A stretch of 32,167 nucleotides of DNA from NCBI GenBank assembly GCA_964538105.1, contig CAZIFP010000002.1:1-32167 (forward strand), in the 5' to 3' direction. A model generated the notes under the pieces. The model saw nothing but the letters and a program-made list of their open reading frames with translations, was not told where the DNA came from and searched no databases. The DNA comes from an uncultured Bifidobacteriaceae bacterium. GTDB taxonomy: Bacteria > Verrucomicrobiota > Verrucomicrobiia > Limisphaerales > UBA11358. The first letter of the stretch is position 1. Every line of letters begins with the position of its first letter. Positions 5,358 to 17,600 of this stretch are shown piece after piece. The translations under genes and the position numbers were made by a program.

Positions 5358-8078
5358 TCAGCGTCCAAACAAATCCATCTGCGGCACGGGCGCGAGGTTT
5401 TTCAATTTCTCGCGGTCCTGCTGGCGTCGCGGCTGGCGCACGTTGCCTTCCGGCGTCAGTTCGGATTCTTCGAGATTGCCGAGAATTTGTTTGGCGCGTT
5501 CCAAAACCTCCTTCGGCACGCCGGCCAGCCGCGCGACCTGGATGCCGTAACTTTTGTCCGTGCCGCCCTCGACGATTTTGCGGAGAAAAACAATCTGGTC
5601 GTGCCACTCGCGCACGGCGACGTTGAAATTTTTCAAACGCGGCAACCGCGAGGAAAGTTCCGTCAGTTCGTGATAATGCGTGGCGAACAACGTTTTCGCG
5701 CCGACCTGATTATGCAGGAATTCCACAATGCTCCACGCGAGCGACAGGCCATCAAACGTGCTCGTGCCGCGCCCGATTTCGTCCAGCACGATGAGGCTGC
5801 GCGGCGTGGCGTTGTTCAAAATGTTCGCCGTCTCGGTCATTTCGACCATGAACGTGGATTGTCCGCGCGACAAATCATCGCTCGCGCCGATGCGCGTGAA
5901 GATGCGGTCCACCAGATCAATCCGCGCTTCCGCCGCCGGAACAAAACTGCCGGTGTGCGCGAGCAGCGCGAGCAGCGCGACCTGCCGGATGTAGGTGGAT
6001 TTGCCCGCCATGTTCGGCCCGGTGATGAGCGCGATTTGCGGCGTAGTGGCACAGGCGTCCCGCCTGTGTGTTTCTTGATGAACTGGTTTTTCGCCGGTGG
6101 AAATTGTTTTGGAACTCACAGGCGAGACGCCTGTGCCACTACCCAGTCCCGCGTCGTTCGGCACGAAGCGTTCCTCGACGAGCTGCTGTTCCAGAACCGG
6201 ATGCCGGCCGTCGCGGATTTGCAGCACGCCTTCGTCGGCAACCTGCGTGCGGCAATAATTGTGCAACCGCGCCGTCTCGGCGAACGATGCGAGAACATCC
6301 AATTGCGCCAGTGCGGAAGCGGTCTGCTGGATTTTCGACAACTGGCCTAGCACTTCCTCGCGCACGCGCTGGAAGATTTCGTATTCCAGTTTCACGCTGC
6401 GCTCTTCCGCGCCGAGGATTTTGCCTTCCATCGCCTTCAACTCCGGCGTGATGAATCGCTCGCCGTTCGCGACGGTCTGCTTGCGGTGGTAATGCGCCGG
6501 CACCTTGTCGAGATTGGCTTTCGTGACTTCGATGTAATAACCAAACACGGAATTGAACCGGACTTTCAGCGATGAAATTCCGGTCGCGGCAATTTCATCC
6601 GCCTGCAATTTGGCAATCCAATCCTTGCCGCCGCGCTGCGCGGTGCGGAGTTCATCGAGCGCCGCGTCAAAACCGTCGCGGATCATCCCGCCTTCTTTGA
6701 TCGGCAGCGGCGGCTCGTCCACGATGGCGCGGGAAATGATTTCGACCAAATCCGGCGATTCGGAAATCAGCAAATCCAATTCGGAAATCAAGCTGGTGGG
6801 ACGAGCGTCCTCGCGAGCCGGAGCTTCATCGTGAATCAGATTTTCGGCTCGCGTGGAGTCCTTGCGGACGGCCACCGTTTCCAATGTCTGCTTCAGCGCC
6901 GGAATTTGTTCGAGCGCCATACGCAACGCGGCTAGGTCGCGCGCATTACCGCTGCCGGAACTCAAGCGGCCGAGCGTGCGTTCCAAATCGCGGACGTTGG
7001 CAAGTTGCTGACGAAAGGCGTCGAGGCCGAAGGAATTGTTGATGAAAGTTTCCACCGCGTCCTGTCGCTGACGGATCGGCTCCACTTTGGCCAGCGGCTG
7101 CGAAAGCCAGTTGCGCAACAGCCGCGCGCCCATCGGCGTGACGGTCTTGTTGAGCGCGCCGTAAAGCGAGGCGTTGCGCGGGGCGTCGTGATGCTGCGGT
7201 TCGAGAATTTCAAGATGCCGCAGCGTTGTATAATCGAGCGTGAGAAAATCGCTGCGCTGATAAAACGTAATGCGCTTGAGATGCTTCACATCTCGCCGCA
7301 AATTTTGCGTGAGATAATGCAGCGCGCCGCCGGCCGCACCGATGGCGGCGGTTTTGTCCTTCAGGCCGAAGCCGTCGAGCGAGGCGACCTTGAATTGTTC
7401 TTTGACGGTGTAAAACGCGGTTTCCGGCGCGAAGGTCCAGTCGTCGTAGCCACTCAAAATCTGGAATGCGCCACGCAGCAAATCGCGCACAGCAACCGCC
7501 TCCGTGGGGAAAATAATTTCCGCCGGCCGCAGGCGTTCGAGTTCGGCGAGCAACGCAGCATCATTTTCCAACTCCGTCGTCAGAAAATCGCCGGTGGTCA
7601 GATCCACCAGCGCGAGACCAAAGATTTTTCCCGACGGGTAAACTGACGCCAAAAAATTATTCCGTTCTGCGACGAGCATCCGTTCGTCAAAATGCGTGCC
7701 GGGCGAAAGGATTTGCGTAACCTCGCGGTTTACCAATTTTCCCGGACGCGCGTCTTCGGTCTGATCGCAGATGGCGACCTTGCGTCCGCTTTTCAAAATG
7801 CGGGCGATGTAGCCGTTGGCGGCGTGATGCGGCAGACCGCACATCGGCACGCCGTTGCGGGCGGTGAGCGAAAGGTTGAGGAGCTGCGCGCCAGCCTGCG
7901 CGTCCTCGAAAAACATCTCGTAAAAATCGCCGAGGCGGAAGAGCAGCAGGGCGTCTTTTGGCAGTTCGCCTTTGATGCGGCGATACTGCGCCATCATGGG
8001 AGTGAGTTGCGCTTCGGCGGACACGGCGGGAAAGCTATCCGCGAACGCGGGCAAAATCGAACAAGATTTATTCACCAC
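5358..8078 (-). CDS. mutS: DNA mismatch repair protein MutS, carrying in-frame extra segments
   Basis: Motifs TPMMAQYRRIKGE, LFRLGDFYEMFFEDA, Walker A ITGPNMAGKST, STFMVEMTETANIL and DEIGRGTSTFDG are present. The ORF-track start is GTG at 8078. TTG at 8054 or GTG at 8024 would give a more typical short N-terminus, so the start is uncertain. Confidence 0.95.
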   Translation of the reverse strand: MVNKSCSILPAFADSFPAVSAEAQLTPMMAQYRRIKGELPKDALLLFRLGDFYEMFFEDAQAGAQLLNLSLTARNGVPMCGLPHHAANGYIARILKSGRKVAICDQTEDARPGKLVNREVTQILSPGTHFDERMLVAERNNFLASVYPSGKIFGLALVDLTTGDFLTTELENDAALLAELERLRPAEIIFPTEAVAVRDLLRGAFQILSGYDDWTFAPETAFYTVKEQFKVASLDGFGLKDKTAAIGAAGGALHYLTQNLRRDVKHLKRITFYQRSDFLTLDYTTLRHLEILEPQHHDAPRNASLYGALNKTVTPMGARLLRNWLSQPLAKVEPIRQRQDAVETFINNSFGLDAFRQQLANVRDLERTLGRLSSGSGNARDLAALRMALEQIPALKQTLETVAVRKDSTRAENLIHDEAPAREDARPTSLISELDLLISESPDLVEIISRAIVDEPPLPIKEGGMIRDGFDAALDELRTAQRGGKDWIAKLQADEIAATGISSLKVRFNSVFGYYIEVTKANLDKVPAHYHRKQTVANGERFITPELKAMEGKILGAEERSVKLEYEIFQRVREEVLGQLSKIQQTASALAQLDVLASFAETARLHNYCRTQVADEGVLQIRDGRHPVLEQQLVEERFVPNDAGLGSGTGVSPVSSKTISTGEKPVHQETHRRDACATTPQIALITGPNMAGKSTYIRQVALLALLAHTGSFVPAAEARIDLVDRIFTRIGASDDLSRGQSTFMVEMTETANILNNATPRSLIVLDEIGRGTSTFDGLSLAWSIVEFLHNQVGAKTLFATHYHELTELSSRLPRLKNFNVAVREWHDQIVFLRKIVEGGTDKSYGIQVARLAGVPKEVLERAKQILGNLEESELTPEGNVRQPRRQQDREKLKNLAPVPQMDLFGR
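6043..6142. mobile_element. ~100-bp MITE/REP-like palindromic element embedded in frame in mutS
   Basis: Terminal inverted repeats 6043-6068 and 6117-6142 pair over 26 bp with 1 mismatch (gtagtggcacaggcgtc / gacgcctgtgccactac are perfect). Each arm is itself a hairpin (cacaggcg-N3-cgcctgtg). It encodes ...GSGTGVSPVSSKTISTGEKPVHQETHRRDACATT..., which has no counterpart in E. coli MutS between FIANPLNL and IITGPNMGGKS. Confidence 0.65.
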
Positions 8079-8752: not shown

Positions 8753-8757
8753 CCATA

Positions 8758-8818
8758 TCGTAATCTTAATTCGTAATCTTAATCAAAAAAAGCCGATTAC
8801 GATTAAGATTAGGATTGA
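8758..8818. repeat. AT-rich convergent GATTA-hexamer arrays / imperfect long hairpin between convergent genes (possible bidirectional terminator)
   Basis: tcgtaatcttaat is repeated in tandem (8758-8770, 8771-8783), followed by caaaaaaagcc, then gattac-gattaa-gattag-gattga (8795-8818). 8761-8778 can pair with 8795-8811 with one bulge. The structure lies between the gmhA-like stop (8752) and the SDR stop (8855). Confidence 0.6.
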
Positions 8819-8854
8819 AACCGTGGGCTATTCTCATTCACGCTTCCGGCGCAA

Positions 8855-15434: not shown

Positions 15435-16307
15435 TTACTTCCGCTGGCGACGGAACAGCATCAGTGACAGCCCGCCTAGACCAACCAAAGCCAGCGTGGC
15501 CGGTTCGGGCACCGCTTCCGTGTATTGATCCAGGGTCGTCAAGTTAACTTGGGCTGTTGCGGAATAGGTCCCGGAAGCGGTCTGCGCAGTTCCACCATTA
15601 ACATAATAGGTTCCACCTTGAAGCGCCCCTGGAGCAGCCAAGTCGCCATAAGCAGTCTGACCCAAGCCGGAGTCGCCCGTGCTGGCAACGTCGAAATCGA
15701 AAGTTGAGCCCAGATTTGATAAATCACTCAACGGGACGGTGAGGGTGAGAACAGTCGGGTTGCCTCCCGAGCCATTGCCTATCGTCACGGTTCCTTCGGG
15801 CTGATTTTCGACTACCGTCCAGCTACCGCCACTGAAGACAGCGTCGAACCATCCAAAGGTGTAGGGACTGCTGCCACTTGTGTATATTCCTATCATATCC
15901 GTCATTCCGCCAAAACCACTGTCAATGGATATGGCGCGAGTCTGTGATCCTCCGCTCCAAGCGTTAAATGCATTACCGAGGGTCGTGCCGTTGGCGGAGG
16001 TGTCGCCACCGGCGGAAGGACTGCCGGAGGTCATGACCATGGCATAATCAAAACCGCCTTGAGACGTTGCGTTGCCCTGTGGTTGGAGAGCGATTGAGAT
16101 GTAGAGATTGTTCGCGTCATTGGCGATGGTTGCGGAGTTGATTTGGCGCCCCTTGTTGGCACTCCCCTGCCCCGTGTCATTGCCGGTATAGGTAAAGCCG
16201 CTTATGCCCGTCTGATTTATGGTATCGGCGCACATCGCCGGATAAACGGCATAAGCGAGCGCGGCCAGTCCGACTGCCAATCCTTTGATTTGTTTTCGAA
16301 TGTTCAT
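15435..16307 (-). CDS. PEP-CTERM sorting-domain protein (G/S/T-rich secreted protein)
   Basis: 290 aa with ATG at 16307 and signal peptide MNIRKQIKGLAVGLAALAYAVYPAMCA. The C-terminus VPEPATLALVGLGGLSLMLFRRQRK is a textbook PEP motif plus TM helix plus basic tail. Confidence 0.85.
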   Translation of the reverse strand: MNIRKQIKGLAVGLAALAYAVYPAMCADTINQTGISGFTYTGNDTGQGSANKGRQINSATIANDANNLYISIALQPQGNATSQGGFDYAMVMTSGSPSAGGDTSANGTTLGNAFNAWSGGSQTRAISIDSGFGGMTDMIGIYTSGSSPYTFGWFDAVFSGGSWTVVENQPEGTVTIGNGSGGNPTVLTLTVPLSDLSNLGSTFDFDVASTGDSGLGQTAYGDLAAPGALQGGTYYVNGGTAQTASGTYSATAQVNLTTLDQYTEAVPEPATLALVGLGGLSLMLFRRQRK

Positions 16308-16412: not shown

Positions 16413-16521
16413 GAGATGTCTTAAAGCAGCGCCACATGCCTTTATGGTTGTGACGTCAAGCCAGGGCGCCGGGGGCGGTTCAATTTGGTGGGATCATGTC
16501 GTTGCCAAAAAATGAAGGTGG

Positions 16522-16609: not shown

Positions 16610-16676
16610 CTGCCAGCTTTGTCCCGTTGTTTGTCAACGACATGATCCCGCAATCTGGCGCTCTTGCCCGGCCGGC

Positions 16677-16709
16677 AAGAAAAACGGCGCGTCTTGCGGC
16701 GCGCCGTTT
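16677..16709 (-). terminator. Intrinsic terminator-like hairpin downstream of the LysR fragment
   Basis: The 10-bp GC-rich stem aaacggcgcg (16682-16691) / cgcgccgttt (16700-16709) has an 8-nt loop. On the minus strand it is followed by TTTTTCTT. It starts 21 bp after the stop at 16730. Confidence 0.5.
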
Positions 16710-16729
16710 GTCTGGCTTCATCATGCCCA

Positions 16730-17311
16730 TCAGGACACGTAGCGGGTCACGTCCATGCTCCACGCGCTGTAGCCGGTGAGGCCGCCGAAGGGATGCTGCG
16801 GATGGCAGATGAAGGCCAGCGGCTCGCGGCGCGTGATGTCCAGGACCAGTCCGGGCCGGTGCTGCGGATGAATGGTCAGGCCCAGATCCGCCTCCATGTT
16901 TTCCACGGCGTCATGCACGCCGGCGGGCGTGCCGTAACTGACCGTCACCCGCGCCGCCGGGTGCGCGGCCCGGAACCGGCGGAGCCGGGCGGGCAGTTGA
17001 TGGAAACCGATGGCGAAGCAGACGGCCAGTTCAAATTCGTTGGCGGCCAGTTCATGCGCCCGCAGCAATTCCGCGTCCAGCCGGTGGAAGATCCCGGTCA
17101 TCTGCGCGCAATACGGGTGGCAGGCCCGGCCGTCCGGAGTGAGCCGGATCTCCCGGCAGCGACATTCGGCCAGCTCGGTCTGCAATTCGTGTTCCAGCAA
17201 CGCGAGCTGGCGGCGGGCGGCCTTCCGGGTGAGGTGCAGGCGGCGGGCGGTGGCGGTGAGGCTGCGGGTTTCGGCAAGGTCGCAAAACATCCCAAAGGCC
17301 TCCAATTGCAT
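16730..17311 (-). pseudogene. Truncated, degenerate LysR-family transcriptional regulator
   Basis: From the ATG at 17311 it reads MQLEAFGMFCDLAETRSLTATARRLHLTRKAARRQLALLEHELQTELAECRCREIRLTPDG, which fits a LysR wHTH but is degenerate. It is only 194 aa against ~300 expected and stops inside the effector-binding domain. Local GC content is visibly higher than the flanks. Confidence 0.55.
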
Positions 17312-17370
17312 CAGCGATATTATGCAGGCGGGCGGTGGCGTCAACCGGTTAATACGCCTGGGGCAATCCA

Positions 17371-17600
17371 ATTTGGCTGCGCATCCTGCTGGTGGATGGC
17401 GGCTACAACGGCGAAACGTTCGCTCAATGGGTCAAAGGACTCCGCCCCACAAACTGGCCGTCGTCGTCAAACGCTCCGATGACACCTCTGGTTTCAAAGT
17501 CCTGCCGCGATCACGAAACCACTGGAACCAGCGCCGTGGCGTGGATTTACATCGCCATGATCCAGATTCAACTCCGCGACCGGCCTGATTCCTCATCCAT
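17371..17600 (+). pseudogene. Remnant of the 3' end of an IS5-family (DDE) transposase gene
   Basis: Frame A reads LLVDGGYNGETFAQWVKGL, frame B reads KLAVVVKRSDDTSGFKVLPR, and frame A resumes with RDHETTGTSAVAWIYIAMIQIQLRDR. Together these match the IS5-type C-terminus (ADGGY.GE.F..WV ... VVKR....GF.VLPRRWVVERTFAWL..RRLSKDYE..SEA.IY.AMI.LMLRRL). The match requires two frameshifts and loss of the RWVVERTFAWL block. The N-terminal two-thirds are absent. Confidence 0.55.

Follow-up and report, generated by a model that had tools for sequence, protein, structure and literature searches.

Repetitive extragenic palindromes (REPs) with a terminal GTAG tag have 6-9-bp stems, and a GTGG variant of the tag is found in an Opitutus terrae family (Di Nocera et al. 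2013, PMC3733652). They occur frequently as inverted dimers with 20-100-bp spacers and fall into subfamilies with compensatory stem changes (PMC3733652). The intragenic members encode 20-30 or more amino acids and reach their highest number in the verrucomicrobium O. terrae; many intragenic GTAG REPs lie in genes of replication and repair, among them uvrA, uvrB, uvrD, polA, recBCD, dnaE2 and ligase genes, for which mutator effects have been speculated, and in one case different REPs occupy about the same site, in recB of two Xanthomonas species (PMC3733652). Two inverted REPs that form a long hairpin are termed a REPIN (REP doublet forming a hairpin), which is almost always extragenic and of which the whole doublet replicates (Bertels & Rainey 2011, PMC3116915). 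The present subject is a palindrome of this general kind at positions 6043-6142 of a 32,167-nucleotide stretch of DNA, hereafter called the window, from an uncultured bacterium of the Limisphaerales (Verrucomicrobiota; contig CAZIFP010000002.1, forward strand). It lies in frame within the gene for the mismatch-repair protein MutS, and is very probably a GTAG/GTGG-tagged, REPIN-like REP doublet in a tolerated loop that precedes the P-loop of a functional MutS, at a site that is a hot spot for multiple palindrome families throughout the clade. The features required for the argument are the following.

6043 to 6142, no strand: REPIN-like palindrome (REP doublet) within the mutS reading frame, encoding part of GSGTGVSPVSSKTISTGEKPVHQETHRRDACATT
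6043 to 6072, plus strand: REP unit 1, with GTAG/GTGG tag at 6043-6049, stem 6050-6057 / 6061-6068, loop TCC and tail TGTT
6073 to 6112, no strand: spacer between the REP units, locus-specific, with a homologous spacer only in the mutS allele of the relative L204
6113 to 6142, minus strand: REP unit 2, inverted, with stem 6117-6124 / 6128-6135, loop AGA on the plus strand and GTAG tag at the outer end
5358 to 8078, minus strand: mutS open reading frame (ORF), 906 codons from a GTG start at 8078, the span including the stop codon, from the ORF list and translation
6153 to 6167, minus strand: FVPND codons, a conserved block directly N-terminal of the insert, from sequence and translation
5994 to 6020, minus strand: Walker A / P-loop codons (GPNMAGKST), from sequence and translation

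Structure of the palindrome

The 100 nt form a near-perfect palindrome whose 30-nt arms (6043-6072 and 6113-6142) are 93% complementary and lie 40 nt apart. A sequence-only reading of the window had described an inverted repeat of 26 bp with one mismatch in an intact mutS, with an 8-bp hairpin in each arm; comparison of 6043-6068 with 6117-6142 bears this out, single mismatch included, and extends the arms to 30 nt. Both arms have the features of REP stem-loops (20-40 nt with a 6-9-bp stem), i.e. a perfectly paired 8-bp stem, CACAGGCG/CGCCTGTG, closed by a 3-nt loop; both carry the GTAG (or degenerate GTGG) tag at one end, with GTAGTGG-CACAGGCG read in each; and the two inverted units form one long hairpin as in a REPIN. 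For the 23-nt arm zero chance matches are expected on the basis of 100 shuffles of the window. Folded as single-stranded DNA the 100 nt reach -34.1 kcal/mol, compared with -11.8 +/- 2.4 in shuffles (z = -9.45), and the fold of the mRNA-sense strand has z = -7.84. Rfam gave no match on the window at gathering thresholds, the permissive matches being to generic miRNA models with long hairpins and falling far short of the cut-offs, and a tRNA search of the window found none. No target-site duplication or flanking direct repeat was seen around the element, including in the comparison of the empty allele L201 with filled alleles.

In either orientation the element has only one open frame out of three, and it is the frame that mutS uses; in another frame the tag contributes a TAG stop codon. 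A single open frame that coincides with the frame in use is the pattern expected from selection against disrupted genes. Translation of the open frame yields the recurrent peptides GTG[VI][SL]PV and HR[RQ]DACAT, and the same REP family is found in frame in a His_biosynth gene (HisF/HisA-type), aspS, panC and two PrpD-family genes of other Verrucomicrobiota metagenome-assembled genomes (MAGs), the host genes having been verified with Pfam.

The MutS protein and the position of the insert

The product is identified as a MutS1 mismatch-repair ATPase by its domains, the Phe-X-Glu motif, Walker A and B, and a C-terminal helix-turn-helix. The corresponding database protein P0001 starts at an ATG at 7997, has 879 aa and contains all five MutS Pfam domains, MutS_I to MutS_V (PF01624, PF05188, PF05192, PF05190, PF00488). 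The GDFYE, GPNMAGKST, DEIGRGT and FATHY motifs are intact in the translation, and comparison of the window MutS with E. coli MutS structures gives E = 3.5e-93.

The insert peptide, part of GSGTGVSPVSSKTISTGEKPVHQETHRRDACATT, is flanked by FVPND and QIALITGPNMAGKST, and the beta-strand QIALIT separates it from Walker A; the position between FVPND and Walker A is thus the one originally assigned to it. In the alignment to the structures, the unaligned query residues 120-154 fall between E. coli MutS residues 603 and 608, and the predicted loop position of the insert is based on this alignment. In MutS structures this loop presumably connects the strand of the adenine-stacking Phe with the P-loop strand. 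An AlphaFold2 model of the 879-aa protein with 59 close orthologs was discarded (mean predicted local distance difference test score, pLDDT, 35.5; predicted template modelling score, pTM, 0.21). The insert comprises 34 aa, a net gain of 31 aa over the canonical 7-residue linker, so that the first estimate of about 33 added residues was right as to the existence of the insert and slightly off in its count.

Variation at the insertion site

A protein search supplied 120 MutS orthologs of 87-100% identity to the query, which outside the variable regions differ by at most 10% (mean 4.8%). Inserts are present at the same position in 117/120, the stretch from FVPND to GPNMAGKS measuring 27-67 aa, and the three empty orthologs have the short canonical linker TAFNPEL or TNFNVNM. 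An ortholog alignment had been proposed as the check on strain-specificity, and its outcome is that the insert is not strain-specific. When the insert peptides are grouped by single linkage, at least 11 unrelated families separate, a lower bound because chimeric alleles merge several families within clusters. The type in the window, GTGILPV...THRQDACAT, belongs to a cluster of 20 proteins from independent JGI, ENA and NCBI assemblies, including L204; other insert peptides are IANCQLPIEN...KLEIENRKLEI, ADCGLRIEK...SEIRNPKSEI, SIGRADLLVSQDAQQRVPTT, SGRESAQT...SRLTSAAT, SPSPPQSGGEGRGE...PLPVGRGEGE and VKSLNGYIVES...LTIQRFNDS. Strong palindromy (z <= -3.9) was found in 9 of the 14 inserts for which DNA was obtained, the other five being decayed. 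The linker has 12-16 residues in 130 of 136 MutS representatives at 45-70% identity, and this canonical linker in distant MutS, compared with the filled site here, marks a hot spot specific to the clade.

A second hot spot in the same protein exists at the following feature.

About 6795 to 6876, minus strand: half-decayed REP doublet with GTGG tags in mutS ("site 2"; peptide VRKDSTRAENLIHDEAPAREDARPT), as seen on alignment with the intact counterparts in L204 and L121

The right arm of site 2 is intact and the left one is interrupted by substitutions and by an insertion of 6 nt, leaving an inverted repeat at 6808-6820 / 6845-6857; the doublet is intact in L121 and L204, and at least four other families are found there in other orthologs. 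The nearest kin of the window share its site 2 peptide yet show four states at the main site, namely the family of the window, ADCGLRIEK (P0002), IANCQLPIEN (P0003, P0004, P0007) and empty (P0025). A third palindromic insert, of the "SPLPxGRGEGE" type, was observed in the N-terminal half of mutS at L127:10602-10658 (CACCCCTCACCCCGTCCCTCTCCCCATC / GATGGGGAGAGGG...) and is absent from the window.

In insert-bearing lineages the ratio of nonsynonymous to synonymous substitution (dN/dS) of the mutS core is 0.04-0.09 at dS 0.2-0.7, and the core is under strong purifying selection. This low ratio, the intact catalytic motifs and the presence of an insert in nearly the whole clade argue together for a loop that is tolerated, and for a window allele that is no strain-specific mutator. 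Of the two outcomes raised at the outset, attenuated repair or a tolerated loop, the second is thereby favored; a mild quantitative effect of the insert on repair may exist.

To judge from its identity profile, mutS is a fine-scale recombination mosaic. Compared in 90-nt blocks with L202, it has blocks of 98-100% nucleotide identity beside blocks of 81-82%, and against L204 the identity amounts to 97% immediately 3' of the site and to ~80% 5' of it. Mismatch-repair genes are known for frequent horizontal exchange, with which the mosaic fits, and alleles of the site would in this way be shuffled between strains by homologous recombination. Content is also newly formed within the site itself: the allele of L205 is nested, with a GTAG-tagged outer palindrome (GTAGCAGCGGACGTGAG...) whose center consists of (AAATCGG)n repeats of another family, and that of L206 is a 183-nt composite with more hairpins nested in a GTGG-CGGCAGGCA-TCC doublet; the L207 allele is a clean 24-nt GTAG-tagged inverted repeat. 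The flanks x-L ... P-QIAL are common to all filled alleles, unlike empty alleles, which suggests a single founding insertion followed by repeated replacement of its content, rather than many hits on an empty site. The flank of the empty L201 allele appears to be a divergent recombined segment.

Dispersal of the REP family

The hairpin GGCACAGGCRTCYYGCCTGTG was matched in at least 120 contigs of species-representative genomes, several of them from the same MAG, and the taxa among the listed matches are Phycisphaerae and other Planctomycetota, Verrucomicrobiota, Desulfobaccales, filamentous cyanobacteria, Acidobacteriota and others. Of the 149 listed hairpin matches, almost all have GT before GGCACAGGC (GTGGCACAGGC), giving GTGG-CACAGGC. 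The longer arm of the window, TAGTGGCACAGGCRTCYYGCCTGTGWGTT, is common to verrucomicrobial copies, including those of Limisphaerales and other Verrucomicrobiota MAGs. The innermost stem pair, G-C in both window arms, is A-T in L204 and T-A and C-G in L123, i.e. the variants are compensatory. Arms are found singly or around different spacers, 17-65 nt in length; in the partial genome data searched, the 40-nt spacer 6073-6112 was not found outside the homologous mutS allele of L204, and a recurrence of the whole doublet with its spacer, such as characterizes REPINs, was not seen.

In the soil metagenome X1, which contains this organism, the arms are matched at >=92% identity by 17 unitigs with several unrelated flanks, and one variant has the same arms around a 17-nt spacer; these unitigs break at the palindrome, mix many strains and give no copy number for this genome. 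Unitig joints that skip 6039-6152 are other alleles and do not demonstrate excision. The arms carry many different flanks in metatranscriptomes too, where none of the contigs spans the window's own spacer. Contigs from RNA libraries lead out of the mutS flank into REPs of other families, with carry-over of DNA possible.

As a separate observation, the 21-nt hairpin with a GT(GG) tag is present in distant phyla, including Microcoleus and Nostocales cyanobacteria and Chloroflexi (L001-L120), and tandem arrays of it with 30-41-nt spacing are seen in L037, L081 and L100.

A RAYT domain in related genomes

Two relatives, L127 (MutS 82% identical) and L204 (MutS 91% identical, same insert family), encode a REP-associated tyrosine transposase (RAYT) domain of the Y1/HUH type, matched by NCBIfam NF047646 (E = 1e-18, 67.7 bits) and Pfam Y1_Tnp (E = 2e-6). 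It is part of the following genes.

L127:17127-19994 and L204:15736-18594, in relatives and not in the window: YoaA/DinG-like helicase with RAYT cassette

These helicases have 952-955 aa and carry the RAYT domain in frame after the TSATL motif, within a cassette of ~250 aa arranged as REP doublet, RAYT domain, REP doublet; the 704-aa helicase ortholog of L205 is without the cassette. The REP units on both sides of the domain are of the form GTGG-GACAGGCT-TCC-AGCCTGTC (GTGG-NACAGGC-N-TCC type), and agree in tag, core and loop with GTGG-CACAGGCG-TCC-CGCCTGTG of the window, from which they differ by two compensatory stem differences. Between L127 and L204 the RAYT segment has dN/dS = 0.10. The REP family thus appears to associate with a RAYT as in REPtrons, in relatives only.

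In itself the helicase cassette of L127 and L204 is a complete REPtron that is translated as part of a repair helicase; no report of an in-frame RAYT cassette in a repair helicase was found in the literature searched.

Origin of the insert and alternative explanations

REPs at this locus would have been placed by RAYT-type single-strand (hairpin) transposition, or would have replaced an earlier resident palindrome. Insertions in stop-containing frames or in intolerant loops would be purged by selection, and those that survive would add 31-38 residues, translated as a surface loop of a MutS that stays functional. Alleles would turn over by nested insertion and deletion and would spread between strains by homologous recombination. 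[quoted passage not shown]

Several points weigh against this account. The 32-kb window has one intact copy of the element and, among its ORFs scanned, no Y1_Tnp or RAYT match; the RAYT match in the relatives scores 67.7 bits, compared with the NCBIfam curated cut-off of 80, and the RAYT is a putative mover of these REPs. As the spacer is not repeated, the doublet may not transpose as a unit. A clean empty-versus-filled junction was not found, the flanks differing from TAFNPEL beyond simple insertion. Finally, the likely surface exposure of the loop is deduced from homology and evolutionary tolerance.

Selection of the palindromes for a function of their own is an unlikely alternative. They would act through DNA or RNA structure (as a replication or translation pause, or an RNase target) or as a variable peptide loop, and could tune mismatch repair or anti-recombination, e.g. 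as a heritable and exchangeable mutator or modulator switch beside the ATPase site. In keeping with this, the site is filled in 117/120 orthologs, the hairpins have compensatory stem variants, and intragenic REPs are reported to be enriched in repair genes, with speculation on mutators (PMC3733652). Moreover, in the window, L121 and L123 the strong palindromes lie mostly or entirely within mutS (all of those found do), sequences being compared here that were chosen for containing mutS, in which the sites are homologous, and that are therefore not an independent test of enrichment. However, the families are mutually unrelated and have no common peptide or RNA motif, several alleles are decayed (palindromy z > -2) and site 2 of the window is degraded, empty alleles persist in the clade, and compensatory stem changes are general to REP subfamilies (PMC3733652).

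A further reading, to which we would likewise give little credence, makes the pre-P-loop loop and the second MutS loop landing pads in which GTAG-tagged palindromes are swapped like cassettes and modulate repair or anti-recombination, the REP-RAYT system being functionally integrated with DNA repair. Either cleavage of the shared tag by a RAYT/HUH enzyme or template switching driven by the hairpins could bring the swapping about. If this were true, the exchangeable MutS alleles and the RAYT retained in frame, under purifying selection, in a YoaA/DinG-type helicase would signify an integration of REP-RAYT with repair that goes beyond tolerance.

Bacterial MITEs such as Correia and Nezha move as a unit, have target-site duplications and are derived from DDE insertion sequences. 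The element had at first been called MITE-like, a term that its palindrome with inverted-repeat ends, its length of ~100 bp and its lack of coding capacity of its own made reasonable. A classical MITE, i.e. a 100-bp non-autonomous insertion-sequence derivative that moves as a unit with target-site duplications, is nevertheless very improbable: the repeated unit is the ~30-nt REP arm, found alone or with 17-65-nt spacers, the spacer is not found elsewhere, neither a flanking direct repeat nor an insertion sequence was found, and the arms are self-complementary tagged REP hairpins associated with a RAYT and not with a DDE transposase.

An ancient lineage-specific MutS loop, evolved in place and palindromic by chance, would explain the extra residues in nearly all clade members and is hardly credible, since close relatives have unrelated inserts or none, empty alleles occur inside the clade, distant MutS have the linker of 12-16 aa in 130/136, and the arm is found again between genes, within other genes and in further phyla, as the original interpretation of a repeat-derived in-frame insertion rather than a conserved loop would have it. 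An assembly artefact, in the form of a chimeric join at a repeat, might be entertained for a window that looks like a metagenome contig and for palindromes that break unitigs, but is most implausible given an intact frame and an allele family present in independent JGI, ENA and NCBI assemblies, L204 having a homologous spacer.

Other features of the window and its relatives

The other gene content of the window includes PEP-CTERM, N_methyl/DUF1559, GH28 and GH127. Taken with the extended REP arms, which are identical in Limisphaerales and other Verrucomicrobiota MAGs, and with the metagenomes in which the sequence occurs, it makes the source organism probably a peat or soil member of the Verrucomicrobiota. 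A 23-nt inverted repeat at 16490-16512 / 16627-16649, 91% complementary, 114 nt apart and unrelated in sequence to the mutS element, sits between the ORFs 15435-16307 (PEP-CTERM protein) and 16664-17482. An AT-rich palindrome at 8757-8819 (TTAATTCGTAATCTTAATC / GATTAAGATTAGGATTGAA), just downstream of a SIS-domain ORF, has the look of an operator or of a terminator acting in both directions between convergent genes. Synteny beside mutS varies among strains; at L203:2792-4628 the gene for a DpnI-like restriction enzyme and an HTH (helix-turn-helix) regulator are inserted directly downstream of mutS.

Significance

The role of REPs and RAYTs is a long-standing open question, and the reported enrichment in repair genes has never been tested. 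The locus provides a natural allelic series (empty, intact multi-family doublets, nested and decayed) at one codon position by the MutS ATPase site, in near-identical proteins, and is directly suited to complementation and mutation-rate assays. The permissiveness of the loop is useful for tagging or engineering MutS. In addition, palindromic peptides such as GTGILPV...THRQDACAT in metagenomic proteins can be real translated insertions, and are not necessarily annotation errors.

Elements of this kind, and their occurrence inside genes of Verrucomicrobia, are already on record (PMC3733652). For the mutS location and the multi-family allelic series at one codon position no report was found in the literature searched: mutS is not mentioned in the text of PMC3733652, neither mutS nor the hairpin in those of its supplements that were searched, and a full-text literature search on in-frame REPs of mutS yielded no relevant paper.

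Comparison with known systems

The element resembles bacterial MITEs (Correia, Nezha) in being small and non-coding, in its terminal inverted repeats and in the occasional occurrence within ORFs; unlike MITEs, it gives no sign in the window of unit movement, target-site duplication or DDE derivation. Like the Rickettsia palindromic elements (RPEs), it is an in-frame palindromic repeat in a housekeeping gene, tolerated as an extra peptide loop. RPEs are not known to have a dedicated transposase. The parallel to them that was drawn in the sequence-only reading holds as an analogy and does not extend to membership, the window tag being GTAG/GTGG, unlike the CGTC of RPEs (PMC3733652), in another sequence superfamily and another phylum. 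As in REPIN-RAYT systems, an inverted REP pair forms a long hairpin and, in relatives, REPs of the same family flank a RAYT; unlike in those systems, the spacer in the window is not repeated, the element is translated, and the RAYT of the relatives is embedded in frame in a helicase gene. The resemblance to the GTAG REPs of O. terrae comprises the tagged 8-bp stem-loop, the inverted dimer and the intragenic location in a repair gene. Unlike the published recB case (PMC3733652), at least 11 families occur here at one mutS site within one narrow clade.

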